Notes: generated by a model from the sequence alone, not told the origin. Positions 12,575 to 64,000 are shown, numbered from the stretch's first letter. The stretch is 64,000 nt of DNA from Thermodesulfobacteriota bacterium (GCA_965216785.1 OZ244197.1:1760001-1824000), one strand, 5' to 3'. A program made the numbers and translations.

Positions 12575-12678
12575 CAACTAAAATCGGAGAAAATAATATT
12601 GTATAAAAATCTTATCAATAATGATATCGGGAAGATGCATGAATCAGCTCGGGGCGGTAAGGACGGAGTAATACTTCA

Positions 12679-13893: not shown

Positions 13894-13937
13894 TAACCCC
13901 CGTTGTATAACCAGATTACTTCAAAGCGGTTAACACA

Positions 13938-16478: not shown

Positions 16479-16492
16479 TCGAGAATATTCTT

Positions 16493-44658: not shown

Positions 44659-44671
44659 GAGGTTAGTAGTA

Positions 44672-46861: not shown

Positions 46862-46935
46862 AGGTTCTCCCGTTATTCACTTGTCCACAGAATAAACGCT
46901 GATGTGTAAGTGTCGAATATTATTGTAAAAAAGAG

Positions 46936-47009
46936 CGTCCCCGAGAGGATTCGAACCTCTGGCCTCAGGATTAGGAATCCTGCGCTCTATCCTGCTGAGC
47001 TACGGGGAC
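46936..47009 (-). tRNA. tRNA-Arg(CCT)
   Basis: Reverse complement GTCCCCGTAGCTCAGCAGGATAGAGCGCAGGATTCCTAATCCTGAGGCCAGAGGTTCGAATCCTCTCGGGGACG folds as a cloverleaf; anticodon CCT; CCA not encoded. Confidence 0.97.
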
Positions 47010-47019
47010 TGTTTAATGA

Positions 47020-47032
47020 TATCAAGGGGTTA
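47020..47032 (+). promoter_or_regulatory. IHF-consensus site next to the att/tRNA junction
   Basis: TATCAAGGGGTTA matches WATCAAnnnnTTR exactly. Confidence 0.5.
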
Positions 47033-48125
47033 TGAGCTTAATATTTCTATTGGTCTCGTCATCAGTGTCCAAATAGGTGACCGTTGGCGAGAATTGTAAG
47101 TGCTCAACAGCTTCCTTTTTGTGTTGGGGTGATGGGTGTATGTATCTTTTAGTAGTGCTTATATCTTTATGTCCCATCAGTTCTTGTATCGTAGCAATAT
47201 CTACACCAGACATTGATAGATTACTCCCGAAACTATGTCTTAGATCATGGAACCTTAAATGTGCTATCCCTGACCTTCTTAGAGCACCCCAGAAGGCCTT
47301 TTTTACCGTCTTGACTGGAATACCATTGGCTCCAGCAAAAAGGTGCTCACAATTGTTATTATTAATAACAGACTTTAGAGTCTTCATCAATAGGGAATTA
47401 ATCGGTACATGCCTAATATCTCCATTCTTGCTTTCTCTGACGAGTATATACCTGTCTCTAAGGTTTATGTCAGAAACCCTTAGATTAAGGATCTCAGACC
47501 TTCTTAACCCTGTATGTATGGCTATCATAAGGATAGGTTTTAGGAATTCAGAAGCTGCTGCATATAGTTTTGCGAACTCATCTATTGAGATCACTCGTAA
47601 TTGTTTAGGCTTTTCAGGAAATAATTTTACTTGAGCAACTGGATTGTTCGATATCATATTCCACTCAATTGCTTTTTTAAACATATGTTTCAGCATTGAA
47701 AGTTCTCTATTAATACTTGCCTTAGCAGGACTTTTACCATTTTTCATTATTTCCTTTTGCCGAGATGATTTATATTTTTCAACATGCCAGTTGGTAATTT
47801 GCTGGATTGTTCTTCCATTGAAATATCGCCTAAGATGTTTGGAGGATGTCATGTCTCTGTCATAAGAGTTTGGTCTTTTGTTCGCTTTTGAATATTCAAG
47901 ATATTGTGTAACCAACCTTTCAAATGGAGTTGGCTTGATAGCACTTTCTAATTTGAATTTACCTTGGGCCATTTCTGCTTTTCTTATAGACAAGGCTTTC
48001 TTAGCATCTTCACGATTAATTCTGGAAGGATCGACACCGGGGATTGAAACAACCTCTCGTTTCCTCTTCCCATTCGGCATATAATAATCTATGTACCATC
48101 TGTTACCTTTTCGATAATATCCCAT
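47022..48125 (-). CDS. int: Tyrosine recombinase/integrase (phage-integrase family)
   Basis: Arm-binding N-terminus WYIDYY..GKRKR, TGLRRSE, SKNG, FHDLRHSF, LMGHKDISTTKRY (R-K-H-R-H-Y). Confidence 0.96.
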   Translation of the reverse strand: MGYYRKGNRWYIDYYMPNGKRKREVVSIPGVDPSRINREDAKKALSIRKAEMAQGKFKLESAIKPTPFERLVTQYLEYSKANKRPNSYDRDMTSSKHLRRYFNGRTIQQITNWHVEKYKSSRQKEIMKNGKSPAKASINRELSMLKHMFKKAIEWNMISNNPVAQVKLFPEKPKQLRVISIDEFAKLYAAASEFLKPILMIAIHTGLRRSEILNLRVSDINLRDRYILVRESKNGDIRHVPINSLLMKTLKSVINNNNCEHLFAGANGIPVKTVKKAFWGALRRSGIAHLRFHDLRHSFGSNLSMSGVDIATIQELMGHKDISTTKRYIHPSPQHKKEAVEHLQFSPTVTYLDTDDETNRNIKLITP

Positions 48126-48408
48126 ACTGCTTTCTCCTCTTGAATTTTTTCTCTAATTCTTCAAGTGGATCTATTTCTTTTTTTTCCTTTCCTACATATA
48201 TACAGTGAGTTTTGTTTTTATAAGTGAAGTACGCATACCAGTACAAACCGTGACCCGAACCCCCTTCTCTACACTTACTACAGCCACATTTCGAGGGCTT
48301 CTGCTGATAAACAACCGCTGGGGGTAAAAGAGTTTCTATATGATTATGGAGCTGTCGAAGTTCATAAACACTAAGTTCCTTTAAAATAGGAGCAATCTTA
48401 TCTAACAT
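48103..48408 (-). CDS. DUF6788-like small Cys/His protein overlapping the integrase start
   Basis: KCGCSKC..G.GHGLYWYAY....KTHCIYVGK motif; overlaps int by 23 nt. Confidence 0.7.
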   Translation of the reverse strand: MLDKIAPILKELSVYELRQLHNHIETLLPPAVVYQQKPSKCGCSKCREGGSGHGLYWYAYFTYKNKTHCIYVGKEKKEIDPLEELEKKFKRRKQYGILSKR

Positions 48409-48445
48409 TATTAGATATGCTACTACATTTTATCTTCAATTTCAA
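48400..48445 (-). promoter_or_regulatory. Sigma70-like promoter for DUF6788-int with an overlapping palindrome
   Basis: Minus strand TTGAAA(48445-40)-17 bp-TAGCAT(48422-17), ATG 8 nt after the -10, no SD; ATCTAA-N5-TTAGAT at 48400-48416. Confidence 0.5.
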
Positions 48446-48542
48446 GACTCCTTTAAAATTGTTCGATAAGCATCATCCTGGAAGAATAATAATTCTTGTT
48501 ATATCATTTAAATGTTAGAGAGTTCTTCTCAGGATGTGAGGA

Positions 48543-50825
48543 ATGATAGAAAAAGTTGTATTTATAAAAAATATAGGGCGTTTTATTAACTGCAATGCGT
48601 ATGGCGACATCCATTTTCGTAAATGTAATCTAGTTTTTGCAGAAAATGGTCGTGGAAAAACTTCTTTTTGTTCTATTTTACGTTCCCTAAGTACTGGTGA
48701 GTCATCTTTTATTCAGGGTCGAAGAACACTCGGAACAGAAGAATTACCTGAAGTCCATTTAAGACTTGATGGGCAGAATTTCATTTTCAGAAATAATGAG
48801 TGGAATAATACTGTTCCCCATATAATGATTTTTGATGATAGTTTCATAAATCAAAATGTTTACTCAGGTGAAAATGTAGATGTAGATCACCGCCAAAACT
48901 TATATGACATAATAATTGGAGAAAGAGGTAAAGAACTTGCATCTGAAATCCGTAATATTGACAGAGATGTGCGAGATAAGAATGGGCGATTAAGCGAGGT
49001 TAGATCGGAGATAAGAGCATTAATACCAGAAGGAAGAATTGGATTTGAGGCTTTTCTGGATTTACCTTCTGATGGTGAAGTTGATAAGCGTATTACAGAG
49101 AAAGATAGGGAATTAGAAGCAGTTAAACAGTCAGCCATATTACAAAGAAGTCCAGTTTTAAAAACTATCATAATACCCAATATGCCTGAGGGTTTCTTTC
49201 CATTTTTGGCTAAAAGTTTTGATGAGATTGCTGAGGATGCTGAAAAGAAGATAGCAAGCCATATCGAAACCCATAAGATGCAAGATAGTGGAAAGGAATG
49301 GTTATTCGAGGGCTACAAACATATAGAAAAAGATAAATGTCCATTTTGTGCACAGGATTTGTCAAATTCAGAACTTATAAAATCTTATACTAGTTTTTTC
49401 AGTGAAGCTTACAATAAACTCAAAGAAGAAATTAAAATCTTGGAAGAAAGAATTCTCGAGGACTTTGGAGAAGTCAGAATTGCATCGTTAGTAACTAGTT
49501 TAGATAAAAACAAAGCTGCACTTGAATTCTGGAGACGTTATTCTGACCTAAAGGAACCTGTTTTTTCTGATAGCGAGAATCTTAAAGACTACATTTCGCA
49601 GGTTAGGGACATTGCTCAAGAATTACTAATCCAAAAATCACAGACACCCATAGAAAAAATTGAGCCTGATCCTGAGCAAAATATGCATTTTACCAAACTA
49701 AGTAGTTATATAGAGGGGGTTGAGACCTATAATAAGGGAGTCACTGAGGCGAACTCAATCATCCAAGAGATGAAGGAAAAAACACGATCAAGAAATCTTC
49801 GTGATGTCGAAGCGGAAATGATTCAATTAAAGTCAGTGAAGAAACGTCATGAAAGTGAAGTTGCAACAATTTGTGAGAATTATCGCCGATTACTTACAGA
49901 AAAACGAGCTCTAGAAACTAGTAAAATAAGGACTAGGGCATTGTTAGATACGCATACAGACGAAGTAATTGAACAATACGAAAATGCTATTAACCGTTAT
50001 TTAGATTATTTTAATGCGGGGTTCCAAATAGCTAGAACTAATTACGACTATATGGGTGGAACGCCTAATGCACATTACAAGATTTTAATTAATAGGACTC
50101 ATGTTGATCCTGGTAACTCATCATCACCTATTAGTGAGCCTTCTTTTAGAAATACATTAAGTTCTGGTGATCGTAGTGCGCTTGCTTTAGCTTTCTTCTT
50201 AGCGCAATTGGAGAATAATCCTGACAAAGCACAGAAGATAGTCATTTTCGATGATCCATTCAATAGTCAGGACGATTTTAGAAAGGGGAACACCGCACAC
50301 CGTATCAGACAGTGCGCACGCGAATGTACTCAGGTAATAGTATTATCTCATGACAAGCATTTTTTAAAACATGTGTGGGATGAACTACCGAGGGAAGAGC
50401 GTAAATCTATCCAATTTTTCCGAGTTTCAGAGGATTGTACAGATATTGCAGAGTGGGATATTGACACTGCTGTTCAAGCACGGTTTAAAGCTGATATTAT
50501 TACCTTATTGAAATATTACGGTAGCAACGAAGGAGATTCGAGAGATGTTGTAACTAAAATACGACCAGTTTTAGAAGGTTTTTGCCGTAATCTCTATCCT
50601 ACGAAGTTTAGTGAAACTGATACATTAGGTGTGATCGTAGAGAAAATACAAGAAGAGGGTTCAGGTTTTCCTCTTCATTCTATCCATGAAGAATTAGAGG
50701 AGATAAATATTTACAGTCGTAGGTATCACCATAGTGATAATCCAGAGTTCGCTACTGAACCGATCAATGATGCAGAGTTGAAAGGATATATTAAAAGAAC
50801 TCTTGCTGTCACTGGATATTTTTAA
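48543..50825 (+). CDS. rloC: RloC-like AAA_13 (Rad50/SMC-type ABC ATPase + HEPN) anticodon nuclease / defence protein
   Basis: Walker A AENGRGKT, coiled coil with zinc hook CPFC, signature LSSGD, Walker B VIFDDP, VLSH, C-terminal IRPVLEGF and SRRYHH HEPN-like motifs. Confidence 0.75.
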   Translation: MIEKVVFIKNIGRFINCNAYGDIHFRKCNLVFAENGRGKTSFCSILRSLSTGESSFIQGRRTLGTEELPEVHLRLDGQNFIFRNNEWNNTVPHIMIFDDSFINQNVYSGENVDVDHRQNLYDIIIGERGKELASEIRNIDRDVRDKNGRLSEVRSEIRALIPEGRIGFEAFLDLPSDGEVDKRITEKDRELEAVKQSAILQRSPVLKTIIIPNMPEGFFPFLAKSFDEIAEDAEKKIASHIETHKMQDSGKEWLFEGYKHIEKDKCPFCAQDLSNSELIKSYTSFFSEAYNKLKEEIKILEERILEDFGEVRIASLVTSLDKNKAALEFWRRYSDLKEPVFSDSENLKDYISQVRDIAQELLIQKSQTPIEKIEPDPEQNMHFTKLSSYIEGVETYNKGVTEANSIIQEMKEKTRSRNLRDVEAEMIQLKSVKKRHESEVATICENYRRLLTEKRALETSKIRTRALLDTHTDEVIEQYENAINRYLDYFNAGFQIARTNYDYMGGTPNAHYKILINRTHVDPGNSSSPISEPSFRNTLSSGDRSALALAFFLAQLENNPDKAQKIVIFDDPFNSQDDFRKGNTAHRIRQCARECTQVIVLSHDKHFLKHVWDELPREERKSIQFFRVSEDCTDIAEWDIDTAVQARFKADIITLLKYYGSNEGDSRDVVTKIRPVLEGFCRNLYPTKFSETDTLGVIVEKIQEEGSGFPLHSIHEELEEINIYSRRYHHSDNPEFATEPINDAELKGYIKRTLAVTGYF

Positions 50826-50909
50826 AAATTGATAATTAAAACCAGTGAGACTTCTAATAATAGTAATTGGCTCATACCGATTAAAACACTCTCACAAGAA
50901 TGTTTGAAA

Positions 50910-50931
50910 AAATTCTTTCACCAGATGAAAG
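50910..50931 (+). repeat. Palindromic repeat, copy 1
   Basis: AAATTCTTTCA-CCAGA-TGAAAG(tttca). Confidence 0.9.
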
Positions 50932-51049
50932 TTTCAAGCTGGGTGATCAGAAGCTTGACCGAAATTTAGAAGATGATCTATCTCATGAAAGTGTAGTCTC
51001 AAACGCTACAAAAGTGTAAACTATGTTAACCGGAATTCCTATGAATCTT

Positions 51050-51670
51050 TTAGTTTCCAAAAATTATTTGAATTGCTTCTGTCGCAGAGTATGGACTTAA
51101 TCCAGTTTTTTCCCAAATCTCGGGATCGGCATCACGAGGCCATATAAGACTTGGTGTGATCTTCTTACTGGCTCCATTCAAAGGATAAGCTTTATCTATC
51201 AGTACAATCCAAATCAATTTTCGTTCAACACCATCAAAATTAGTTCTAGGATCATACACAAATACGCCATCACCTTTTGGATTGTTCATTGTCAAAAACT
51301 CTCTTCCCCCGACCTTTAATTGATTAGGTGCAATTGATTGTATTACAATTCCTCGAGCATAATGGTTGGGTTTAGAGATTGATAGTACTTGTGATTTATA
51401 TTTATAAGTCTCGGGAGATTTTTCTTTTTGGTATTCACGTATAGTTGCATAGCACCTGATATTAAAAAAAGTATCATCAAGATATATTTCTTTACATTCT
51501 TTTTCCATGCAAGATACATCTGGTCCACATTTTTCATAGATTTTTTCGACTTGTTCTTGAGACATTGAAAATTCTCTCTTCTCTATCTGATATTCATCTC
51601 CTAGTGTTTCCAGACAGTACACATTAAATATCAGTATGAATAAGATAAATCCTGTAATTGGTTTAGTCAT
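51050..51670 (-). CDS. Hypothetical exported protein
   Basis: 206 aa, N-terminal hydrophobic signal, AGGAGG SD, Cys-containing N-terminal half. Confidence 0.7.
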   Translation of the reverse strand: MTKPITGFILFILIFNVYCLETLGDEYQIEKREFSMSQEQVEKIYEKCGPDVSCMEKECKEIYLDDTFFNIRCYATIREYQKEKSPETYKYKSQVLSISKPNHYARGIVIQSIAPNQLKVGGREFLTMNNPKGDGVFVYDPRTNFDGVERKLIWIVLIDKAYPLNGASKKITPSLIWPRDADPEIWEKTGLSPYSATEAIQIIFGN

Positions 51671-51869
51671 TGGTTGTCCTCCTTTTATTTATCGAGAATC
51701 ATGTTTCCATAGCTACCATCATGCATATATTCATTTAGCTAGTTAAATATCCACCGGAATCTAACCAACTTTATAAGTCTTGTTTATAAAAGTCGCATTA
51801 TACTGATTATTGTTATGTATTCAATAGTCTATGGTTTTAGTCACGATTTGACCAGAAGATATTGCCTAT

Positions 51870-52118
51870 ATGGCAACTCGGATAAATAAGAAACTTGTCA
51901 CAGCATTTGCAAGAGCTTTAAAATCTATCCGTCTTGAAAAAGAGCTCACTCAGGAGCAAGTAGCATATGCTGCTAAAGTTCATCGCACATATATTGCTTT
52001 CCTAGAAGGCAGGAGAAAACAACCTTCTATTGATGCAGTATTTAAGATAGCAAATGGTTTAGACATTAAACCGAGTGAATTAATAAGGAGGGTAGAGACA
52101 TATTATTCTAAAAAATGA
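51870..52118 (+). CDS. XRE/Cro-C1 family HTH regulator
   Basis: LKSIRLEKELTQEQVA...VHRTYIAFLEGRRKQPSI. Confidence 0.9.
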   Translation: MATRINKKLVTAFARALKSIRLEKELTQEQVAYAAKVHRTYIAFLEGRRKQPSIDAVFKIANGLDIKPSELIRRVETYYSKK

Positions 52119-52144
52119 TGGGTTTCATAGATGTAATGTTGCCC

Positions 52145-52169
52145 TTCTTTCACCAGATGAAAGAATTTC
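52145..52169 (+). repeat. Palindromic repeat, copy 2
   Basis: TTCTTTCA-CCAGA-TGAAAGAATTTC; 52146-52169 is identical to 62987-63010. Confidence 0.92.
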
Positions 52170-52358
52170 CTAGTAGGGATGAGGTTTGAATGAGATTAAA
52201 GCCAGATATCTTCTCCGAAAATCACCCAGCTCCTACTTGATACAGATTCAAAATCCATCGGCTTTATTCAAATACCCTTACGATTCGCTCTCTCCAGCAT
52301 GTCACAGACAACGGAATTTTCGCTTAGGATGTGGGAAATGACAACAATAAGATCAACC

Positions 52359-52583
52359 GCATGCTCTTATAACATGATTTGATTGCGGCGTTTATAACCA
52401 AGGTCTCCTAATTCTTTCGGGAGGCTCGATAAAGAGGGGCTGATGAATTATCTGGCAATCCCTTTACACCTGAACGTGCTTACAGTGCTTCCGTTTGGCT
52501 ATTTTGATGAGAGCCTCGGGGGTGGAGATAAATTCAGGAGGAGTCCCGAAGAGGTGTTTCATTTAAATAGGTTCGGGGAGTGA
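52359..52583 (+). pseudogene. Nitroreductase-family C-terminal remnant
   Basis: Frame ending at 52583 reads ...LAIPLHLNVLTVLPFGYFDESLGGGDKFRRSPEEVFHLNRFGE*; upstream frameshifted pieces YNMI/IAA/YNQGL; no 5' half. Confidence 0.55.
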
Positions 52584-52713
52584 CTATAGGTGCCGAGGAG
52601 AATTTTTACCGGATGGCCTTTATTTACACCCGGCGAGTGTTTGAGTACGCATCTTTTATTTATACAAGCCACTCTGCTATACTTAAACCAGACTTGCTCA
52701 AAGGATGCAATAA

Positions 52714-53940
52714 TTGAATCCAATTGAAATAATTGTCGATATAGCCAGAGAAGTCGGGATTTCTGGTTTCTTGGATATAGCATTTATTACGATATTTATA
52801 TATGCAATCCTGGTGCTGTTTAAGCAGTCAAAAGCAAGATTTATTATTACAGGCATTCTTATATTAAGTGTAGTATATCTTATAGCCCGACAATTAAATC
52901 TAGCCTTAACTACATCTCTTCTCCAAGCCTTTTTCGCGGTCATCTTGCTTGCTCTTATTATTATCTTCCAGGAAGAAATAAGGCGCCTTTTTGAGCACAT
53001 TGCACTATGGAGCTTAAATCCTAAAGTAAGGTCAAATAAGACTACCAGTCCTGACAATAAGGAAACAGGAATTCTTGTTGATACTCTTTGTGATTTGGCT
53101 CAGCATAAAATTGGAGCGCTCATTGTAATCAAAGGTAAAACGGATTTATCTGGATATTTGGAGGGCGGTGAGATATTAGATGGGAGCATCAGCGAACCTC
53201 TTCTTAAGAGTTTATTTGACCCACATTCGACAGGCCATGATGGAGCAGTGGTAATAAGTAAAGGGAGAATAACATTTTTTGGCACTCACCTTCCCCTATC
53301 AAACAACTTTTCTCAACTTAAAAATAGAGGCACCCGTCACGCGGCTGCACTCGGAATATCGGAAGTTACCGACGCGCTTTGTCTTGTTGTTTCAGAAGAG
53401 AGGGGAACCATATCAATTGCCCATACCGGTGAACTAAAACAAATCGGCTCGGAACAACTAAACATTACTCTTGAGTCTTTTTATGAAGACATAAACCCGC
53501 CTGCTAAAAAAATGCCTCGTTTGGATTTCTCTCGGAATTATAAAGAGAAAATACTAGCATTACTCGCAGCTATAATTCTTTGGTTCGTATTCGTACATGA
53601 ATCAAGAACTGTTTACAGAAGTTTTGAGATACCAATTGAGCATACAACTCTTCCAGCCGGTTTCAAAGTTAAAGAAATAGATCCAGATAAAGTAAGCGTT
53701 ACTTTTTTAGGACCTAGAAGAGAGTTCTATTTCTTTAATGAGAACCAGGTCAGTTTAATACTGAAAATCCCAAATGCCGAACACGGTTTAGAACGCATTG
53801 ATATTTCCGAGTCCAACATTAAGTTTCCAAATGATCTATCTTTAGAAGATGTCGAGCCAAGAACAGTTACTGTACACATTGAAAAAATAGAAGCATTGAA
53901 TAAACAAGGGGATAATTTAAAAAACCAAGATCCTAGGTAG
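52714..53940 (+). CDS. Membrane diadenylate cyclase (CdaA/DisA_N) fused to a YbbR(CdaR)-like domain
   Basis: Three N-terminal TMs, IIFQEEIRR, GALIVI, HDGAVVI, GTRHAAALGISE, VVSEERG, then a TM and a P..V.VT..GPR YbbR-like domain. Confidence 0.88.
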   Translation: MNPIEIIVDIAREVGISGFLDIAFITIFIYAILVLFKQSKARFIITGILILSVVYLIARQLNLALTTSLLQAFFAVILLALIIIFQEEIRRLFEHIALWSLNPKVRSNKTTSPDNKETGILVDTLCDLAQHKIGALIVIKGKTDLSGYLEGGEILDGSISEPLLKSLFDPHSTGHDGAVVISKGRITFFGTHLPLSNNFSQLKNRGTRHAAALGISEVTDALCLVVSEERGTISIAHTGELKQIGSEQLNITLESFYEDINPPAKKMPRLDFSRNYKEKILALLAAIILWFVFVHESRTVYRSFEIPIEHTTLPAGFKVKEIDPDKVSVTFLGPRREFYFFNENQVSLILKIPNAEHGLERIDISESNIKFPNDLSLEDVEPRTVTVHIEKIEALNKQGDNLKNQDPR

Positions 53941-53954
53941 GGGAGGACACACCT

Positions 53955-55268
53955 ATGGAAACAACTACACCACTTTTGCCCTATGTGCAAAAATTCTTTG
54001 AATACGATCCTTTGACTGCAACCCACGCACTTGAAACTATGGATGAGGAGGAGGCAATCAAGATACTCACCATTCTTCCGGCTTCTATGTCCTCAAGTAT
54101 CTTTCGAAGATTGCCCACCGAACTAGCTGCGTCGCTGCTTGAAAAGGTCCCGCCCGAGACATTTATAGAAATTGCGGAAAAAATGGAGCCCCAGCAGGGC
54201 GCTACAATACTCATGCACATAACTGATGAAATAAGAACCAGAATGCTGACACACTTGCCGGATAAGACCAAGATGGCAATACAAGAGATACTGACTTATC
54301 CGAAGGGAAGTGTGGCTAGTATTATGACCACTAAATACGTAGCATTCCATAAAGATATTAGAATTTCAGATGTAGTTGAAAACATCCGTCAAAGAGCTCA
54401 TTCCAAAGCTCCGCCAGCGAGTTATGTATATGTTATAGACAATGAAAATCACCTGATTGGTGTCCTCAATATGCGTGATCTCATAATTGCAGATTCCGAT
54501 TCAAAGCTTGAATCAATAATGATAAAAAATCCGTATTGTATAAACGCTTTTACAGAGAGGGAGGTTGCGGCTAATGAGCTCGCCGACCGAAAATATTTTG
54601 CAGCTCCCGTAGTCGATAATGAAAACCACCTTTTGGGCATAGTAAAAGCCGATCAATTAATCAGCCAAGCTCAAGAAGACGCAAGTGCAGACCTTCAGAA
54701 AATGTTCGGAGTATCTCCAAGTGAGCATGTATTCTCATCGATTAAATTTTCTCTTACTAAACGACTTCCCTGGCTTCATATTAACTTGGTTACCGCTTTT
54801 ATGGCCGGGTCGGTTATTGCTATATTTGAGGGGATCATTGCTAAGATTACTGTTTTAGCCATATTTCTCCCTATAATTGCTGGCCAGGGCGGTAACGCTG
54901 GTTCCCAGTCATTGGCTGTAGTGATGAGGGGGCTTGTAATGAGGGAAGTTTCACCAAGAGAGACAAAGCAATTGGTGATGAAAGAGGCTAAACTCGGTCT
55001 TATAAATGGCGTAGTAATAGGATTTGTTACTGCGCTTATTGCTTGGATGTGGAAAGGTAATCCATACCTTGGACTCGTGATTGGACTTGCTATGATAGTG
55101 AACTTAGTGGCCGCAGGTGTTTCAGGAGCAATTATTCCCCTTACTCTCAAAGCATTCGGACAAGACCCCGCTCAGTCTTCAGCTATCTTACTCACCACTG
55201 TGACCGATATTATAGGATTCTTTTCATTTCTCGGGTTTGCTATGATATTCCAGAGTTTATTAATATAG
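53955..55268 (+). CDS. mgtE: Magnesium transporter MgtE
   Basis: MgtE_N, CBS pair, RLPWL, GQGGNAGSQ, DPAQSS, TTVTDIIG. Confidence 0.95.
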   Translation: METTTPLLPYVQKFFEYDPLTATHALETMDEEEAIKILTILPASMSSSIFRRLPTELAASLLEKVPPETFIEIAEKMEPQQGATILMHITDEIRTRMLTHLPDKTKMAIQEILTYPKGSVASIMTTKYVAFHKDIRISDVVENIRQRAHSKAPPASYVYVIDNENHLIGVLNMRDLIIADSDSKLESIMIKNPYCINAFTEREVAANELADRKYFAAPVVDNENHLLGIVKADQLISQAQEDASADLQKMFGVSPSEHVFSSIKFSLTKRLPWLHINLVTAFMAGSVIAIFEGIIAKITVLAIFLPIIAGQGGNAGSQSLAVVMRGLVMREVSPRETKQLVMKEAKLGLINGVVIGFVTALIAWMWKGNPYLGLVIGLAMIVNLVAAGVSGAIIPLTLKAFGQDPAQSSAILLTTVTDIIGFFSFLGFAMIFQSLLI

Positions 55269-55319
55269 CGTTGACCGATAAACTAACAAATTAGTTCGCT
55301 CTGCTGAGATTGCGTTCTA

Positions 55320-56342
55320 TTAACTATTCGGATTTTTCTTTTTAGCCAACTCCTGCATGTCTTCGTGTATATCTGATTCATCAACTATTTCTTCTCCGAT
55401 TAAAGACTCTATTACATCTTCTAAGCTGACTACTCCGATAAATCTGTTATTTCCATCCCTGACACAAAAGAGGTGGCGGCGAGTATCTATAAATTTATCC
55501 AGAAGCTCGTGTAAAGGCATCCCTCCATGAACAAAGTCTGGTGATACCATCAAATTGTTAATCTGCACATCGCTTTTTCCCTTAAGTAAAGCAAAATCAA
55601 TATCACGTCTATTAACTATTCCTATTATATTATTTTTGTCATTTTCGCCATACACCGGCATTCTACTGAAAATCCAGTTTTCAGAATCGATATCGATATC
55701 CTTGATAGCTATATTTCCCGGCAAACTGTAAACAACGGAACGAGGAGTCATAATGTCGTGAACAATAGACCTGTCAAGGAGCAATGCATTTATTACCATG
55801 CGGGCTTCATGAGACATTATGGCACGACTATGACGACCAAGTAATGCTAAGCTAATTATATCCTCTTCTGTAGGGAAATTTATGTGACTCTCTTTTCCCC
55901 AGACTCTTGTTATAACGACAGTAATTTTTACGAAGGGCCAGAGCGCTTTAACAAAAAAGGTAATAACACCAGCCAACCGGGGTGCGATTGAGCTTGCAAA
56001 AGTCACTCCTAATGATTTAGGGAGTATTTCACTCAAAAAAAGAACGGCTCCTGTGAATACCCCCGAAAATATACCAAGCCACATATCACCATAGTGTTTG
56101 GCGATTAATCCGGCTGACCATGTTGCCCCTATTATATTGATAGCGGTATTAAGAGTGAGGATTGCTGCAATCGGCTCATCAATTTTATCCCGCAGCTTAG
56201 CAAGCTTAACGCCGCCCGGATCACCACTTCGTTTTAAGGATTCGATGCGGCCCCTCGGTATTGCATATAGAGCTGCCTCCATAAGCGAACAAAAAAAATA
56301 ACCCAGGAGTGTAACCCCTACTATCACGGCTATAGCAAACAT
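55320..56342 (-). CDS. CNNM/DUF21-CBS (CorB/CorC-like) protein
   Basis: FFCSLMEAA, AAILTLNT, SEILPK, IMTPR, FSRMPVY, GVVSLEDVIE.LIGEEIVDE. Confidence 0.92.
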   Translation of the reverse strand: MFAIAVIVGVTLLGYFFCSLMEAALYAIPRGRIESLKRSGDPGGVKLAKLRDKIDEPIAAILTLNTAINIIGATWSAGLIAKHYGDMWLGIFSGVFTGAVLFLSEILPKSLGVTFASSIAPRLAGVITFFVKALWPFVKITVVITRVWGKESHINFPTEEDIISLALLGRHSRAIMSHEARMVINALLLDRSIVHDIMTPRSVVYSLPGNIAIKDIDIDSENWIFSRMPVYGENDKNNIIGIVNRRDIDFALLKGKSDVQINNLMVSPDFVHGGMPLHELLDKFIDTRRHLFCVRDGNNRFIGVVSLEDVIESLIGEEIVDESDIHEDMQELAKKKNPNS

Positions 56343-56378
56343 AAGCTCCTTTCCTTATAACACTTAGAGATATGATTA

Positions 56379-57401
56379 TTAACCCTTAGGACCTTTCCTT
56401 TTTGCTAATTCTTGCATGTCTTCATGAATATCGAGCTCGTCCACTATCTCTTCGCCTATTAGGGACTCGATAATGTCCTCCAAAGTGACAATACCCATAT
56501 ACTCATCCTTTGAGTTCTTCACACAGAATAGATGTCTTCTTGTTAAGATAAAACGCTTAAGCAGCTCGTTCAGATGCATATCCTCGGGCACGATGTCAGG
56601 AGGTATCATAACACTCCTTAATGTTTTGTTACCCTCACCTCTCATTAGAGCCATATAGACATCGCTTCTTAAAGCCACGCCTACTATATTGTCAGGTTGC
56701 CCTTCTGTATAAACAGGAATTCTGCTGTAATGCCAGTAGTCCGAATCCAGGTCTATATTCCCCAGTATTGTGCTGTCCGGCATCTCCATTACTACGGATT
56801 TGGGTGTGTAGATCTCCTTAACCCTCAACTCGTCCAGCCTGAGTGCGTTTGTTACAATTTCCGCCTCCTCGGGCAGTATTCCGCCACCATGATGCGTAAG
56901 CTCGGCAAGGCTCTTTAAATCATCTTCCGTTGGGAAGTTCAGGTGAGAATTCTTGCCCCACAGGCTTGTAATAAACACGCTCAGTTTTACAAAAGGCCAT
57001 AGTATTTTGATGAGAAAATCAATCAGTATGGACAAGCGTGGAGCGAGGGCGTTTGCATAAGTTACTCCCAGGGACTTTGGAATAATTTCGCTGAATATCA
57101 AAACTCCCCCTGTAAATAGGCCGGAAAAAACTCCGAGCCAAGTATCCCCGTAATACCTGGCAACCAGAGAGCCCGCAATGGACGCCCCGATTACGTTTAC
57201 AGCAGTGTTGAGAGTTAGTATAGCTGCTATAGGCTGATCAATATTATCTCTTAGTCTGGCCAGCCTTATCCCGCCCGGGTCACCTTCCCGCTTCAAAGAC
57301 TCGATCCTGCTCCGGGGAATGGAATATATTGCAGCTTCCATAAGCGAGCAGAAAAACGATCCCAATAAGCTGATTCCTGTTATTATTGCAATAGCGTACA
57401 T
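56379..57401 (-). CDS. CNNM/DUF21-CBS (CorB/CorC-like) protein, tandem paralogue
   Basis: Same motifs and same length (340 aa) as the neighbouring gene. Confidence 0.92.
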   Translation of the reverse strand: MYAIAIITGISLLGSFFCSLMEAAIYSIPRSRIESLKREGDPGGIRLARLRDNIDQPIAAILTLNTAVNVIGASIAGSLVARYYGDTWLGVFSGLFTGGVLIFSEIIPKSLGVTYANALAPRLSILIDFLIKILWPFVKLSVFITSLWGKNSHLNFPTEDDLKSLAELTHHGGGILPEEAEIVTNALRLDELRVKEIYTPKSVVMEMPDSTILGNIDLDSDYWHYSRIPVYTEGQPDNIVGVALRSDVYMALMRGEGNKTLRSVMIPPDIVPEDMHLNELLKRFILTRRHLFCVKNSKDEYMGIVTLEDIIESLIGEEIVDELDIHEDMQELAKRKGPKG

Positions 57402-57439
57402 AGATCAATTCCTTCCCTTTAGGCAACTAAGTGTAGCAC

Positions 57440-58396
57440 TCAGTTATCGGCTGTGTCCTCTATACCGACATTGATGAGAGCGTCTCCCCTATTTACAATC
57501 GGTAGACTTCTGATACCGATTATATAACCGTCCGTGCTAGTTCTTATTTTATGTTCAGTCTCGCCAAAGGGGTCGGTAATGCTCGCGATGATTTGGCTTT
57601 TCTTGACTTTCTCACCATATTCTACAAAAGCTCTATAAATTCCCGAGTTCCTTGCACGTATCCATGAAGTACTTCTAATCTCTACAGAGCTCTTTCGTTT
57701 TTGTGGATTTACTTTCATCATTTTTAAATGCTTCATGAGCCGCTTGATTCCCTCCATCCCTTCCTTAATTGCAAGCTCATCGAAGCGGAGTGATTCCCCG
57801 CCTTCGAAAACAAGAATAGTTTTCCCCTCTTTATGCGCCGATTTTCTCAATGAATCGTCTCTTAGTTTAGAATTTATTATAAAAGGTGGAGCGAAGGCAC
57901 GGGCCAGAGTTAAATTGTCCGGCGCATCAAACGTACATCTCACCTGTGGATAATTATTATTTGCCCCTCCAGTGTGCAGATCGACTCCATAATCAATTAC
58001 AGGCATTATTTTACTCATCAAAGTATGAGCTACTCGTGAAGCGAGTGAGCCGGTTTTTGTACCCGGAAAACTCCTGTTAAGATCCCTGCCGTCCGGAAGA
58101 TACCGGGACTTGTTTAAAAAGCCATAAACATTAACGATGGGCACAGCGACTACCATTCCTGCGGATGGTATTACTGACTGGTTAACTATCAAACGTCTGA
58201 TTGTTTCAATACCATTTAGCTCATCTCCATGTATACCTGCCATAATAAGAAGACTGGGCCCTTCCTTTTTACCTCTGAAAACAAATACAGGCAAGTCTAT
58301 CATTGTATGCGTCGGCAGTTTTGCGACGTTCAAGTTTATTTGAGCGTTCTGCCCAGGTGCTATTTCTTCACCATTTATTACTATGGTTTCTGGCAT
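57440..58396 (-). CDS. Succinylglutamate desuccinylase/aspartoacylase-family M14 peptidase
   Basis: AGIHGDELNG, RDLNRSFPG, VDLHTG, FEGGE. Confidence 0.92.
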   Translation of the reverse strand: MPETIVINGEEIAPGQNAQINLNVAKLPTHTMIDLPVFVFRGKKEGPSLLIMAGIHGDELNGIETIRRLIVNQSVIPSAGMVVAVPIVNVYGFLNKSRYLPDGRDLNRSFPGTKTGSLASRVAHTLMSKIMPVIDYGVDLHTGGANNNYPQVRCTFDAPDNLTLARAFAPPFIINSKLRDDSLRKSAHKEGKTILVFEGGESLRFDELAIKEGMEGIKRLMKHLKMMKVNPQKRKSSVEIRSTSWIRARNSGIYRAFVEYGEKVKKSQIIASITDPFGETEHKIRTSTDGYIIGIRSLPIVNRGDALINVGIEDTADN

Positions 58397-59305
58397 TTAT
58401 GATTTTACTCTATCTTTTATTAGTCTTTTGCGGTGAGCGTTTTCTTCTACAAACTCAATGATTTTTGATGCAACATCAATACCACTGGCTTTTTCAATAC
58501 CCTCAAGACCAGGGGATGAATTGACCTCCATAATCTTGGGGCCCGTACTGGATTGCAGCATGTCTACCCCGGCAACGTTAAGCCCGAGTAGCTTAGCTGC
58601 TTTAATAGCGGTCGAGCGTTCGCTTCTGCTAAGTTTGATTTCATTAGCGCTTCCACCACGGTGTATGTTTGAGCGGAACTCCCCTTCAGCGCCCTGTCTT
58701 TTCATAGCCCCTACGACTTTCCCACCTACAACGAACGCCCTTATGTCAGCTCCCTTAGATTCTTTTATAAACTCCTGAATGAGGATGTTAGCCTGGATAC
58801 CATAAAAGGCTTCCAAAACGGATTTTGCAGCTTTTTTGGTTTCTGTAAGTACGACTCCGATACCCTGTGTGCCTTGAAGGAGCTTTATTACTAGTGGAGC
58901 TCCCCCAACTTCCTCTATCAGGTGGTTTATATCGTCAGGGTCCGATGCAAAAGCGGTAACCGGCATTCCGAGTCCCGCGCGTGAAAGTATTTGCATACTG
59001 CGAAGTTTATCTCTTGACCTCACAATCGCCTGTGACTCGTTTACCGGGAACACATGCATCATTTCAAACTGTCTGACAACAGCAGTACCATAGAAGGTTC
59101 TTGAAGCGCCAATCCTCGGAATAACAGCATCGATCCCTGTGAGTTTTTCCCCATCGATATATATCTCTGGATTCTTTTTCTCTATCACCATGTAGCATTT
59201 CAGAAAATCTAACACTTGAACATCGTGCCCTCTCTCCTGAGCAGCCTCTACGAGTCTTTTAGTAGAATAAAGATTCTCGTTTCTCGACAATATGGCTATC
59301 TTCAT
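58397..59305 (-). CDS. rimK: Ribosomal protein S6--L-glutamate ligase (ATP-grasp)
   Basis: [53 protein letters not shown]. Confidence 0.96.
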
Positions 59306-59766
59306 TTTTGTCTCCCTTTGTTTTTATGCTTATATGATAGATTCGATTTAGTTACATCGACAACAAACCCCTCTTTCAATAATTTTCTGCCTAATAGTAT
59401 GGGTTTTCCCATTTTTGAGCGGTCACTTAAAGAAATCTCTATATCATAATTTTCCCCGAAAAGCCTTATGGAAGTCTTAATTATGCATCTTTTCTCCGAT
59501 ATACCAAACGAACTTTTGACATTCCTTATTGCGTGTAGCTTTACTCTGAACCTCTTTTCGTCATAATCTGGATGTGAGGGATCGAGAAGATTGAAAGTTA
59601 CATATTTTTGCCCGTCCTTCTCTTTTACTTTGATATTGTGGCAGTGTATTGACGATGTGTAGGCACCTGTGTCTATTTTTGCGTCAATGTCATAAAGCCT
59701 CATTCTTGGAAAGTCAACTTTATCTCTTCTGCCAATTAAGCGTTTTTCTGTTCTATTTTTAGACAT
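59302..59766 (-). CDS. RimB-like retropepsin-type protease (RimK-associated)
   Basis: [31 protein letters not shown]; overlaps the rimK start. Confidence 0.88.
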
Positions 59767-59825
59767 CTATATGCTTGATATTATTACACAGATATATCAT
59801 TATGTAACTAGAGGACGGTGCATTA

Positions 59826-61622
59826 ATGTTTGATTTTGTGACACAGCTGGACGATTTTTTCCTAGCACTATATGTTCATCTAACTTCCAATATAAAAGAC
59901 GAGTTAGCAGCTGCCGCAGTTCTTCTCGTAGTTTTTGTGGTAACGCTTCTTGTGCATAAAAAAGCAATCGGGTTTCTCCTACGCACCCAATGGAAGTTCA
60001 AGCCGTATGTACTGTTTCTCATAGCTCTCGTCTTTCCGCTTATTTATATTCTTATCGTAATTGGGGCGGCTCCACATTTGAAAGGTGGATTGACTCTAAT
60101 ATTATTCTCCTCTCTTGCTTATTTCTATCTTGGCTTTTACCTAATAAAGAACCTGCTTGAACCGCTCAGGATAAACAGCGTACCATGGAAGATTATTTCA
60201 TATGTATTATTATTATTGACCGTAATTTTCAACGCATTAGTTGATCTAAACACGCAGTTCTTTAAAAGCCCCGATTTACAAGAAGTATTCTCCATATTTT
60301 TCAAAGTCTCTGCAATACTGCTTATTTACATGTTTTTACTCAGAGCACTTAGGTTTTTAACTGAATTTCTTCCAGAGCGGCAAATAGTTGCGAAACATAT
60401 TATAGAGAGCCTCATAAGCGTAGTGTCGGTTCTATATATTATCCTCGCAGCGCTCTGGCTCTTTAAATTAGTCGGGTTCGCATCATCGCTATTTGTCGGC
60501 GGCGTGGCTGTATTTATTGCCGTAGTGGGCTATGGGCTTCTCAAATCTTTTGCTGCTAGTTATCTGGGGCCGAAAACAGATGGAAATCCTTCATATAGTG
60601 CGTTGCTAAAGAGTATTGAATCTTTCCTCATTCTGCTGCTGATCTATGTTCTATACATTATATTCAAACTCTCTTTTAACCTGGAGCAGGTTCATCACTT
60701 CCTTTCCGAGGCGTATCTAGTAAATACAGGCGTGATTGTTATATCTTTATTCTCTCTAGTTTCTGGGCTCTTCATGTTCTTCTTTTTACTTTCAATGATG
60801 GGGATCTTAAAACAAATAGTTTATTTCTACAACATGAAGCTCGGCAGGGAGCTCGAAGCGGCTTCGCTCAGGTCTTTGGTATCTAATCTCGGCCTGTTGA
60901 TCGTAATAATGATTGCCCTTTCCGGGATCGGCCTTACATGGAAAGCATTACTCCCCATAGCGGGTGCTCTGGGAATAGGTATTGGGATTGGGCTCCAAAC
61001 TATTATGAATAACTATCTTAGCGGCTTCATACTCTTATTCAGTAAGCGCCTTAAGATTGGAGACATTATAGAATTTGACGGTAATGCGGGTAGAGCTATT
61101 GGGAATACATTAGAGACCATATATGGTCGTGTCGTAAGTATTGATACATTTTCAAGCGTAGTAACGACTACTGACGGCATCGAAATAGTTGTCCCCAACT
61201 CACAATTTATAGATAAGCAGATGGTAAATTATTCACTTTCTGACTATACAATCAGGGTTAGGATTCCTTTCGGTGTCTCCTATTCTGCAGATCCCAATAC
61301 AGTAAAAGATATACTTTTAAAAGTAGCCAATGAAAATACTCAAATACTCAGGTCTCCCGAGCCCGGCCTTTGGTTTACGGAATATGCCGATAGCGCCCTG
61401 GTGTTCTATCTGCTTTGCTGGGTTAATATCAAGGACATTTGGAAAATAAAACCTGTCATTAGCGATATTTACTTCAAGAGCTGGTATGAGCTGAAAAAAG
61501 CCGGTGTAGTCATACCATTCCCGCAAAGAGATGTGTGGTTTAAAAATAATCTTAAGGTCGAGATAGAGAAAGATCTCGGAGAGCACTTTCAAAAGAAACC
61601 GGGCGACTGGGGAGGTGAATAA
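59826..61622 (+). CDS. Mechanosensitive channel, MscS family (multi-TM)
   Basis: GALGIGIGIGLQ, N.LSG.ILL, GDII, VVPNS, FGVSY, IPFPQRDV. Confidence 0.92.
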   Translation: MFDFVTQLDDFFLALYVHLTSNIKDELAAAAVLLVVFVVTLLVHKKAIGFLLRTQWKFKPYVLFLIALVFPLIYILIVIGAAPHLKGGLTLILFSSLAYFYLGFYLIKNLLEPLRINSVPWKIISYVLLLLTVIFNALVDLNTQFFKSPDLQEVFSIFFKVSAILLIYMFLLRALRFLTEFLPERQIVAKHIIESLISVVSVLYIILAALWLFKLVGFASSLFVGGVAVFIAVVGYGLLKSFAASYLGPKTDGNPSYSALLKSIESFLILLLIYVLYIIFKLSFNLEQVHHFLSEAYLVNTGVIVISLFSLVSGLFMFFFLLSMMGILKQIVYFYNMKLGRELEAASLRSLVSNLGLLIVIMIALSGIGLTWKALLPIAGALGIGIGIGLQTIMNNYLSGFILLFSKRLKIGDIIEFDGNAGRAIGNTLETIYGRVVSIDTFSSVVTTTDGIEIVVPNSQFIDKQMVNYSLSDYTIRVRIPFGVSYSADPNTVKDILLKVANENTQILRSPEPGLWFTEYADSALVFYLLCWVNIKDIWKIKPVISDIYFKSWYELKKAGVVIPFPQRDVWFKNNLKVEIEKDLGEHFQKKPGDWGGE

Positions 61623-62063
61623 TGTCTTCGAGGCTAGTAAAAAAGACATCAGCCAAAAAGGCCTACGACCGGGCTCACTAATTTACATTGGCGAACAAAA
61701 AGTCGATAAAGTCAGAATCAGGGTAATAGATTACGATGAGAAGAACCTAATTGAGTATGAATATGAAAGTATTGAAGAAACCTTTTCATTCAAAGATAAC
61801 AATTCTGTTTCATGGATAAATATAGACGGTCTACACGATGTGGAAGTTCTCAGAAAATTAGGCGAAAATTTCGGAATTCATAATCTCGTTCTTGAAGATA
61901 TTTTAAACACTGACTTCCCTGACTTTTATAGCCGGCCTTTACGGAATGAATTTTGATAATATGCCGGAGCTACATAAGAATTGGGGCTACCCTATAGTTA
62001 TTATCGTTATAGTAGTTGTAGCAGTAGGAATGATATATTATTTTAAGAAAAAAATGGTTTTAG
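61615..62063 (+). pseudogene. corA: corA pseudogene with a large internal deletion
   Basis: N-terminus [34 protein letters not shown] is fused out of frame at ~61915 to the C-terminus [22 protein letters not shown]. Confidence 0.88.
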
Positions 62064-62114
62064 TTGTTGTTTCTTAAATCGATAGTTATCGGTCAAGGAC
62101 TGAATGGGGACACT

Positions 62115-62960
62115 ATGAAAATTGCTGTAACAGCAGCGAGTGGGCATTTGGGTGCCGAGATAGTCAAGGCAACTGTTCAGCTTGTTGGTAAAGGTAACGT
62201 TGTCGGGCTTGCACGCACGCCTTCCAAAGCCGAACATCTTGGTATTGAAATTCGGAGGGGTGATTACGGTTCCAAGAAAGATTTAATGAAAACGCTGCGA
62301 CACGTGGACACCCTCTTGTTGGTATCCGGTATGGATGATCCTATAAAGCGCATTGATCAACACCGTAATGTAATTTATGCTGCCAAGTATGCTGGTGTGA
62401 AGAAGATTGTCTATACCAGCATTCAAGGTGCTGAGAAGCATACGGCTTTTTCTCCAATAATTCAAAGCAATCGCCAAACTGAGTGTGATTTACATCTCTG
62501 CGGATTAGATTGGGTAATTGGGCGCAATGGAATTTATATTGAATCAGACATTGAGTGTATAGCAACCTACAAGGAGAAGGGAGAAATCGCAAATTGTGCT
62601 GGCGATGGAAGATGTGGTTACACCACCCGGCCCGAATTAGCGTATGCCTATGCCCGAATCTTGACCGAATCCAAGCACAATGGTAGAACATATAATCTGC
62701 ATGGAGAACCGATTACACAGTATCAGCTAGCAGCTTATCTAAACATGACGTTTGGCACCAACTTGACATATAGACCTATGACAGTAGAAGAATATCGCCA
62801 AGATCGTATTACGGAATTGGGTGAATCAATGGGTAATATTATAACTGGCATCTATCAGGGAATTCGCGAAGGAGCATTGTTTAACATCAGCCATTATACT
62901 GACGCAACTTCCAGATCCCATCAAAGTTGGGAAAATTATTTCAATGCTCTGAAAATATAA
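62115..62960 (+). CDS. NmrA/QOR2-like atypical SDR oxidoreductase
   Basis: MKIAVTAASGHLG, QHRNVI.AAK.AGVKKIVYTS, GRNGIY. Confidence 0.88.
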   Translation: MKIAVTAASGHLGAEIVKATVQLVGKGNVVGLARTPSKAEHLGIEIRRGDYGSKKDLMKTLRHVDTLLLVSGMDDPIKRIDQHRNVIYAAKYAGVKKIVYTSIQGAEKHTAFSPIIQSNRQTECDLHLCGLDWVIGRNGIYIESDIECIATYKEKGEIANCAGDGRCGYTTRPELAYAYARILTESKHNGRTYNLHGEPITQYQLAAYLNMTFGTNLTYRPMTVEEYRQDRITELGESMGNIITGIYQGIREGALFNISHYTDATSRSHQSWENYFNALKI

Positions 62961-62986
62961 GAATAATACTTTATATTTTTGTGTAC

Positions 62987-63010
62987 TCTTTCACCAGATG
63001 AAAGAATTTC
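62987..63010 (+). repeat. Palindromic repeat, copy 3
   Basis: TCTTTCA-CCAGA-TGAAAGAATTTC, 24-bp perfect direct repeat of copy 2. Confidence 0.92.
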
Positions 63011-63132
63011 AGATGTATCCGCTCTTATTTCTTAGTAATTCGTATTTTATATAGACTGTGAACTTTGTGAGCCTATGTATAGTTATACAGGAACATCATT
63101 CAAGCTAGATATTATGTAAAATGCTTGCAACA

Positions 63133-63164
63133 CAAAACGAGTATAGGGATCGCCACTTATACTC
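63133..63164 (-). terminator. Probable intrinsic terminator of the xis-rep transcript
   Basis: Minus strand GAGTATAAG-N8-CCTATACTC stem followed by GTTTTG. Confidence 0.45.
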
Positions 63165-63188
63165 ATTCTTATCCAATAGTATTGGATA

Positions 63189-63674
63189 TTATTTTCGGGT
63201 TCTATTAACTTCAGGGAAAACTAATTGCCCCTTATTAGTTTTGGGTGAGTAAAAATCAATCTCACTACCAAATCTAATGCTCTTAGTCAAATAAAATTTC
63301 GCTCCTAATTCAGGATCGTAATCATAAATACGAGCAAAACCATTTATGCTTTCATCTTCGTTTAAATTGAAGTTTTTTTCCCATAAATACATGTATTTCA
63401 GCTTATCTAATTTCCATACATCTCCGCCCATTAAAAAATGAAAGTGAATGACATTCCTTTTTTGATTTTCTAATACATAAACCCATGTTACGCCTAAATT
63501 CTTTTCTCTATATCTTCTGCCGTGAAGTTGCTGGTTTATTTTTTTTATGAAAGTGAAGAATCTTCTCTTAGCTATTTCAGGGTGAATTTGTTGCTGAAAT
63601 GTAAGTGTTCCATACCAATGGAAGGGTTCTAGCATAGATATTAGCTCAATCCAACCTAACTCTATAGGTCGCAA
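63189..63674 (-). CDS. HUH-superfamily rolling-circle replication/relaxase-like endonuclease (true start may be ~24 nt upstream)
   Basis: Motif I GTLTF, motif II ENQKRNVIHFHFL, motif III FYLTK. Confidence 0.8.
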   Translation of the reverse strand: MRPIELGWIELISMLEPFHWYGTLTFQQQIHPEIAKRRFFTFIKKINQQLHGRRYREKNLGVTWVYVLENQKRNVIHFHFLMGGDVWKLDKLKYMYLWEKNFNLNEDESINGFARIYDYDPELGAKFYLTKSIRFGSEIDFYSPKTNKGQLVFPEVNRTRK

Positions 63675-63693
63675 ATATGACTCATTAATATAA

Positions 63694-63885
63694 TTAATTA
63701 TAGCTCACCTCCACTCTATGTTTTTCAAGGAAATTCTCGAATTCAGATTGGTTGATTAGTATCTTTTTTTGGATTCGGTAGTGGGCAATCATTTTGTAAC
63801 GAATCCAATAATAAATCGTTGTTACATTGATTCCATATAATGCTGATAAGTCTTTGGGGGAGAGTTTCTTATCTTTGCTCTTCAT
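63694..63885 (-). CDS. Excisionase-like HTH (HTH_17/MerR-like) protein
   Basis: 63 aa, LSPKDLSALYGINVTTIYYWIR...I..YRI.KKILI. Confidence 0.82.
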   Translation of the reverse strand: MKSKDKKLSPKDLSALYGINVTTIYYWIRYKMIAHYRIQKKILINQSEFENFLEKHRVEVSYN

Positions 63886-64000
63886 CTATCTCCACCTCAG
63901 CTAATTCACAGAGTCGACGTATTTTTTGCTCAAATATATTTAGCTCATCTGTTATCAATGAATAGAATGATAGAGCTTCACCTTTGTCTGCTGAAACAAA
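63869..64000 (-). CDS. 3' end of a hypothetical CDS overlapping the xis start
   Basis: Open frame from the window edge: FVSADKGEALSFYSLITDELNIFEQKIRRLCELAEVEIDEEQR*. Confidence 0.5.
   Translation of the reverse strand, partial: FVSADKGEALSFYSLITDELNIFEQKIRRLCELAEVEIDEEQR

Follow-up and report, generated by a model that had tools for sequence, protein, structure and literature searches.

Mobile elements that combine site-specific integration with an HUH replication protein (Rep) and lack virion genes have been described as integrated HUH-Rep plasmids or "integrated mobile genetic element" clusters, and the same work also reports free exchange of Rep modules among plasmids and inoviruses (Kazlauskas et al. 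2019, PMC6668415). Here, we describe an 18,222-bp island of this kind at the anticodon region of a tRNA-Arg(CCT) gene in Thermodesulfobacteriota bacterium (GCA_965216785.1). The stretch analyzed, hereafter the window, is 64,000 nt long (OZ244197.1:1760001-1824000, or G000:C1:1760001-1824000) and belongs to a genome of one 3.1-Mb contig that is 92% complete; positions above 64,000 carry the numbering on beyond the window end. The island probably leaves the chromosome as a circle, which its small HUH Rep then likely copies, starting at a nick site close behind the Rep gene.

The kind of element is already known from integrated HUH-Rep plasmids, from integrative mobilizable elements (IMEs) with rolling-circle replication (RCR) initiators, and from modular tRNA islands. 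The new details are an origin motif downstream of the Rep gene and an internal repeated site. The pCRESS Reps of PMC6668415 are nuclease-helicase fusions, whereas the island Rep is a nuclease alone of 161-166 aa, with its closest annotated match in a Xanthomonas inovirus and an origin-like motif downstream. RCR-initiator IMEs share with the island an integrase, Xis, an RCR-type HUH protein, a size of 5-50 kb, cargo, and the lack of a transfer apparatus. As listed in PMC5704250, their initiators belong to PF01719, PF02407, PHA00330 or MobT, whereas the island protein belongs to PF23343, and the island lacks a TcpA-type coupling protein.

Tycheposons (bioRxiv 10.1101/2020.12.28.424599) resemble the island in targeting tRNA genes, in being modular and in carrying a small replication module at one end. 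They come in cargo and terminase sister types, and the same split separates the island from a sister island at tRNA-Pro in the same genome, which, unlike the source island, has HTH_36 and Terminase_4 genes. Their integrase points inward, whereas that of the island reads outward into its attachment site (att), and the island host is not a cyanobacterium. The word "rolling" is absent from the text of the tycheposon paper.

A site-specific insertion at tRNA-Arg(CCT)

The locus holds one real site-specific insertion, which is confirmed by both of its ends and by empty sites. The island lies between two perfect 48-bp repeats, each of which is the 5' half of tRNA-Arg(CCT) through the anticodon loop. 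The features of the two ends are as follows:

46935..47009, minus strand: restored tRNA-Arg(CCT), the sole CCT tRNA of the genome, with an island-derived 5' half
46968..47015, minus strand: att core at the integrase side, 48 bp, made of a 6-nt leader and tRNA positions 1-42
47016..47024, minus strand: TGATATCAT, an extended -10-like motif that overlaps the stop codon of the integrase and lies 6 nt ahead of the tRNA
47064..47085, minus strand: arm-type repeat with CACCTATTTGG core; second copy at G000:C1:1825054-1825075, past the window end
65190-65237 (G000:C1:1825190-1825237), outside the window: right att, the displaced 5' tRNA fragment and island end

Because the repeat is the tRNA 5' half, the island sits upstream of the restored tRNA, and so does the displaced 5' fragment, in the same orientation as the tRNA, a point that an earlier interpretation made from the DNA alone (the sequence-only reading) had missed. 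The integrase stop is 13 nt from the restored tRNA. The sequence-only reading had allowed that the HUH and xis genes might belong to a separate element. The 11-bp arm-type repeat CACCTATTTGG, present inside both island ends, links the xis-HUH side of the island with its integrase side, and with the 48-bp att and the empty sites it places these genes in one element. The GC content of the island, in 1-kb bins, is 0.33-0.45, compared with 0.46 for the genome.

In a genome of the same genus (G002), the site is empty and the flanking genes are contiguous; these are presumably genes for a YdeI-like protein, a VOC protein, the tRNA and a fibronectin-domain protein, labels that do not come from a family search. 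In sequencing run X5, which comes from another study and has flanks ~98% identical, precisely 18,222 bp are missing from a contig, and the two sides of its joint (467 to 18690) have 48 letters in common. Run X8 has the same empty-site joint, weakly supported. The likely source sample is represented by four runs, and in these the island forms one 18,234-bp unitig between its flanks, and the 48-bp core has about double depth. As in the definition used by Islander, a tRNA gene (tDNA) and its displaced fragment stand in the correct configuration and enclose a tyrosine integrase, with the empty site found in relatives. An Rfam scan of the 20-kb locus returned nothing besides the tRNA.

Islands that carry a 5' half are described but uncommon (PMC4383910; PMC6563490). 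Table 1 of PMC4383910 gives 159 of 3919 Islander islands with a 5' tDNA fragment and, like the source island, these restore the tRNA 5' half and lie upstream of the tRNA. In the source genome, by comparison, 5' halves account for 4 of 13 tRNA fragments, counted on the same strand, at least 1 kb away and at least 30 bp long, with short-range and opposite-strand rows excluded. Fragment-confirmed 5'-half cases were found in five relatives. On a tree of 29 tRNA-adjacent integrases, picked by similarity to the island integrase and labelled by gene orientation, the 5'-type configuration underwent at least four changes. Islands with a 5' tDNA fragment were reportedly treated by Zhao and Williams in 2002, as cited in PMC6563490. 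The tRNA-Pro(CGG) gene of the source genome is surrounded by three islands (G000:C1:77157-116018); two of these lie on its 3' side, one of them with terminase-small-subunit genes, and the third lies on its 5' side.

Since the island carries the tRNA 5' half, we infer that it must itself supply transcription of the restored tRNA. TGATATCAT could be a promoter-like element for this; equally, it could be a common element-end motif. Because sigma-70 promoter scans of both island ends scored at or below chance, all promoters named here are putative.

Backbone genes and the small HUH Rep

On the minus strand, the genes run in the order sigma-region-4 open reading frame (ORF), 64-aa ORF, Xis, HUH Rep, cargo, DUF6788-like ORF and integrase. 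The backbone features are listed in this order:

65034-64129 (G000:C1:1825034-1824129), minus strand: 301-aa ORF with a C-terminal sigma-70 region 4 helix-turn-helix (HTH)
64063-63869 (start at G000:C1:1824063), minus strand: 64-aa ORF, cut by the window end
63694..63885, minus strand: Xis-like HTH_17 protein, 63 aa (HTH_17, 38.7 bits)
63189..63689, minus strand: HUH Rep with a single Tyr (PF23343), 161 aa from TTG (63674-63189), open frame 166 aa
63097..63185, minus strand: predicted double-strand origin, three hairpins beyond the Rep stop, with CTTG at 63104-63101, then AATG, and a putative nick position
48103..48408, minus strand: DUF6788-like protein, 101 aa, overlapping the integrase start, with conserved C41, C43, C46 and H53
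47022..48125, minus strand: tyrosine integrase, 367 aa (PF00589, 128.8 bits)

Pfam searches and tRNA calling recovered all the components that the sequence-only reading had placed on the minus strand: integrase, DUF6788-like ORF, Xis, HUH protein and tRNA. Its statement that no capsid, tail, type IV secretion system (T4SS) or coupling-protein gene is present also held for the element's ORFs (17 searched with Pfam and 8 with PHROGs). It had expected the right att and further genes beyond the window, and extending the contig yielded that att, the rest of the 64-aa ORF and the 301-aa ORF; the downstream sequence is not a standard prophage, inovirus, or integrative and conjugative element. Likewise, Pfam and PHROGs returned no primase-helicase, terminase small subunit or capsid-redirecting gene in the island, the genes by which phage-inducible chromosomal islands and other phage satellites are recognized. 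With its own integration and excision module and no full conjugation system, the island has the makeup of an IME.

The integrase motif residues R, K, H-x-x-R, H and Y are all present. The 101-aa ORF scores 18.1 bits against DUF6788 (PF20586), below the Pfam gathering cut-off of 27.2. We regard "DUF6788-like" as a fair label because all 72 of the 72 proteins returned by a homologue search carry PF20586 and the top three ESM Atlas clusters are DUF6788. A fold search with its model gave no clear match (best Z 3.8), and a literature search for DUF6788 gave no paper. We class it as an integrase-linked accessory gene. Homologues of the 64-aa ORF were found in two sister islands only.

The HUH protein, which had been described from the DNA as ~160-170 aa long with TLTF, HFH and YLTK motifs and no helicase domain, proved to be as described. 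It scores 33.4 bits against PF23343 (cut-off 27.8), Pfam detects no helicase domain in it, and motifs I-III are intact, including H82, H84, Y133 and K136. Across 105 aligned homologs there is no variation at H82 and Y133 and almost none at T30, F31, H84 and K136, and three homologs at 63-73% identity retain the motifs. The family comprises 1,607 representatives (50%-identity clusters) at E ≤ 0.001, the best 150 of which span 107-361 aa. The predicted model (pLDDT 92) has an HUH fold. A fold search of the PDB placed HUH nucleases in its top rows, weakly (best E 1.1e-3, none ≤ 1e-3), whereas BFVD gave 132 matches at E ≤ 1e-3, and the named ones are replication proteins. The structure and family searches that the sequence-only reading had suggested therefore support a rolling-circle Rep, here predicted together with a conserved origin-like motif.

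The sole annotated phage match is the Rep of Xanthomonas inovirus XaF13 (MN335248), at 26% identity. XaF13 resembles the island in this related Rep, in a small gene upstream of it, and in a GCTTGA between rep and the next gene; it has coat and Zot genes, whereas the island has neither and has its own integrase instead. Searches of viral_contigs for HUH relatives gave 34 pattern matches, none confirmed, and a search of a plasmid collection gave one match, weak and partial. We surveyed the neighbors of the Rep by scanning 134 ORFs, mostly from 202 selected in 79 HUH homolog loci. An Xis-like HTH_17 gene was found in 11 loci, an inovirus single-stranded DNA (ssDNA)-binding protein in 5, a NikA-like protein in 4, and coat protein B in one (L089). 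Integrases lie near the homolog in 14 loci by phmmer and in 3 further loci by Pfam. Two loci (L087 and L125) have the order integrase, ORF, (Xis), HUH Rep, inovirus-type ssDNA-binding gene and then cargo, with no coat genes seen. By their gene content, these loci may be intermediates between inoviruses and Rep-carrying islands. Literature searches returned no description of an origin for this Rep family, nor of this element family.

A candidate origin and the spread of the island

In the source island, a CTTGA motif lies 84 nt past the Rep stop, in a region that folds better than 198 of 200 shuffles. For 68 of the 80 loci surveyed, the 150 nt of downstream flank could be used; these loci formed 40 clusters. 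CTTGA occurs within 150 nt of the Rep stop in 27 of the 40, compared with 6.1 ± 2.2 in shuffles (maximum 12), 7/40 on the antisense strand and 7/31 upstream; among the homologs it is often in a hairpin loop. Origins of the pC194 family are nicked at CTTGATA (PMC10378824, PMC9569500). The conserved motif points to a leading-strand origin rather than to IS91-type transposition. As CTTGA is on the sense strand, copying would leave the Rep gene behind and proceed through the cargo, as in a replicon. For the many very small HUH Reps of this family (1,607 clusters), the motif would mark an origin precisely enough to be tested, and such a Rep with its ~100-bp origin would rank among the smallest replicons and might serve as a vector part.

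We propose the following course of events, which we consider probable. Integrase and Xis would recombine the two 48-bp cores to form a circle, on which all backbone genes would point in one direction, and the host tRNA promoter would be directed at the regulator-xis-rep operon. After a nick by Rep at CTTG|A, host polymerase, aided by a UvrD/PcrA helicase of the host, would copy the circle in the direction that leads off the Rep gene and through the cargo, so that the excised form would not be lost. The host genome encodes UvrD-family helicases. Arrival in new cells would presumably be by passive routes or with an outside helper. The 92% complete host genome yielded no coupling protein (PF02534), VirB4 (PF03135) or Zot (PF05707), and a helper system was not found.

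Several observations weigh against this proposal. The read-depth analysis that the sequence-only reading had called for found no amplification, the island having 0.97-1.23x the depth of its flanks in four runs of one sample. No circle was seen, although a rare one would be invisible because the contigs break at the repeat. That a Rep of 161 aa can carry out rolling-circle copying of 18 kb is a prediction, and the Rep may stem from a smaller ancestor. Such Reps decay, as seen in a homolog interrupted by a stop codon (G036). CTTGA is missing from 13 of the 40 homolog clusters, the CTTG of the source island is in a stem arm rather than in a loop as in several homologs, and no single-strand origin was identified in the island. 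We considered a joint in run X5 that goes back 18261 (side 37 nt) as a circle junction and rejected it, as conserved tRNA pieces of other organisms can produce it.

The HUH protein might instead act mainly as a relaxase, with CTTGA as its origin of transfer (oriT), in an IME that borrows a foreign conjugation system. Streptococcal IMEs use relaxases resembling RCR initiators, and 35 of 118 lack a coupling protein (PMC5704250); genes for NikA-like ribbon-helix-helix proteins adjoin the four HUH homolog loci noted above. We nevertheless think this unlikely, given the absence of detectable PF02534 and PF03135 in the host, the phage Rep as nearest annotated relative, and the inovirus ssDNA-binding gene that follows Rep in five homolog loci.

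The Rep could also be a relic or silent, the island being kept by integration alone and spread passively through vesicles, transduction or transformation, as a tycheposon-type cargo island. The lack of amplification, the many related islands of the order without an HUH gene, and cargo decay with a deletion in corA agree with this. The intact catalytic residues and downstream motif, and the motifs kept in the three close homologs, make it distinctly unlikely in our estimation.

Filamentous virions can in principle accommodate longer DNA, and the island might be a filamentous-phage satellite, or a stripped form of such a phage, that relies on a helper inovirus to package its ssDNA circle. The Rep family does include inovirus-type loci, namely L089 with its coat protein B, the five loci with an ssDNA-binding protein, and XaF13. 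Inovirus prophages are recognized by a Zot/pI ATPase and coat genes; the host genome yielded no PF05707 and the island ORFs are of other families. No ssDNA-binding gene follows the source Rep, no relative was confirmed in viral_contigs, and no packaging signal was identified, so that we judge this origin quite improbable.

IS91 and ISCR elements have a Y2 transposase and an oriIS that directs copying back through the gene. That such a rolling-circle transposase landed within an ordinary integrase island is very improbable: several close homolog loci do consist of Rep with conserved non-coding flanks on short contigs with no integrase nearby, but CTTGA is on the sense strand, directed off the gene (27 of 40 clusters, against 7 of 40 for the antisense strand), flank similarity shows no sharp end at CTTGA, Rep stands at the start of three islands with fixed polarity, and Rep has one tyrosine and less than half the size of the IS91 transposase.

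Exchangeable modules, an internal palindrome and the cargo

The source genome has three PF23343 genes. The other two are 34-38% identical to the island Rep and reside in a 23-kb tRNA-Ala island, whose tyrosine integrase is 33% identical to that of the source island, and in a 32-kb island that splits comM and has a large serine recombinase (a label read from the sequence and not from a family search). In all three islands Rep comes first and the integrase last, on one strand, and a second genome (G004) has a comM version with other cargo and the same polarity. The sigma-r4, 64-aa and xis trio recurs in the tRNA-Pro island of the source genome, followed by the HTH_36 and terminase-small-subunit (Terminase_4) genes. 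It is also present in G040, where the next gene has a DnaB-like N-terminus. The integrases of these two islands are 52-57% identical to the source-island integrase.

A DUF6788-like gene directly precedes a tyrosine integrase in 10 of 18 other loci, and a ribbon-helix-helix-like ORF occupies its slot in other islands. Among 100 other genomes of the order, DUF6788 was found in 13 and strong HUH matches in 2 (a third is weak), with no overlap among the strong ones. DUF6788 was also absent from the 79 HUH loci, of which only 19 reach 8 kb. Two homologous proteins, P0002 (HUH, 73%) and P0193 (DUF, 67%), have the same length, 61,481 bp, given for their longest contig, and may belong to a second element with DUF and HUH genes. 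Because DUF6788 and HUH co-occur in none of the 100 genomes, integrase, DUF6788, Xis and HUH are not supported as a defining set, contrary to the sequence-only reading, and do not form a fixed four-gene family. The backbone instead consists of exchangeable modules: an integrase with a small accessory ORF, a regulator-xis pair, and a replication gene. The island shows how, in a bacterial lineage without cultured members, integration and replication modules that can be swapped are built into islands.

The comM island (G000:C1:862751-894830) also holds a tyrosine recombinase of 208 aa that has the catalytic domain only and, as cargo, a polyketide-synthase-like ORF of 2,100 aa. Recombinases of this type, 208-217 aa long, recur in islands that carry the second HUH subtype (G000:C1:870935 and 1289416; L159, L098 and L099) and are perhaps resolvases.

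A palindromic site is repeated between the cargo blocks of the source island. The site copies and the cargo are as follows:

48543..50825, plus strand: AAA_13 ATPase, 760 aa, matching the PADLOC candidate defence family PDC-S06 (E 1.5e-72)
50914..50931, plus strand: palindromic site, copy 1
51050..51670, minus strand: 206-aa ORF, no family match
51870..52118, plus strand: XRE/control-protein-like HTH, with 88% and 74% paralogues elsewhere in the genome
52146..52169, plus strand: palindromic site, copy 2, sharing 24 bp with copy 3
52714..62062: borrowed block with cdaA, mgtE, two CNNM genes, astE-like, rimK, rimB, mscS and corA
62064..62960, plus strand: NmrA-like NAD(P)-binding protein
62987..63010, plus strand: palindromic site, copy 3

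Allowing at most one mismatch, the 17-bp palindrome has three copies in the 3.1-Mb genome, all within the island and each 27-89 nt past the stop of a cargo gene. Its layout is ~11-7-11, with the full left arm in copy 1 and the full right arm in copy 3. Of 171 fixed 18-kb genome tiles, 1 had another triple palindromic 17-mer. A single copy in G018 (L252:16707), identical to copy 3 at 25 of 27 nt, overlaps an ORF end at the cargo/backbone border of a different island, where a metal-resistance-like region adjoins an integrase and tRNA-Arg(CCT). A relaxed pattern matched across the order at about the control level, and the examined loci of the donor-like chromosomal blocks of G005 and G021 had no copy at ≤2 mismatches. 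Six viral matches to the exact 18-mer were rejected as chance, their contexts being unrelated.

The palindrome's shape fits a tyrosine-recombinase site for the loading of cargo. Tentatively, and with considerable doubt, we suggest a docking site for integron-style cargo loading, by which a ~6-kb rolling-circle ancestor might have gained 12 kb in two steps that left three copies; if so, the site would account for the way in which such islands acquire cargo. It may instead be an operator or a terminator, or its copies may be scars left by nested elements that have decayed.

The 9.4-kb borrowed block is syntenic, at 69-77% nucleotide identity, with several genomes of other genera of the family, and its corA carries an internal deletion. 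Such islands would have moved this magnesium, cyclic di-AMP (c-di-AMP) and RimK gene block between genera. Within it, cdaA (diadenylate cyclase) is directly upstream of the CBS-domain magnesium transporter gene mgtE (52714-55268), an arrangement kept in other genera, and the pair may be a c-di-AMP-linked magnesium module. The tandem CNNM genes (55320-57401) number two here versus one at that position in G005 and G021. For the NmrA-like protein, no homolog at E ≤ 1e-60 was found in 119 other genomes, and a PDC-S06 member also adjoins Rep in L088. Relic fragments at 52233-52579 match sequences elsewhere in the genome and in relatives; we take one to resemble a nitroreductase C-terminus. Outside the island, downstream of the tRNA, two large secreted host proteins (42496-46861), presumably with PKD- and fibronectin-like repeats, are conserved in G002.

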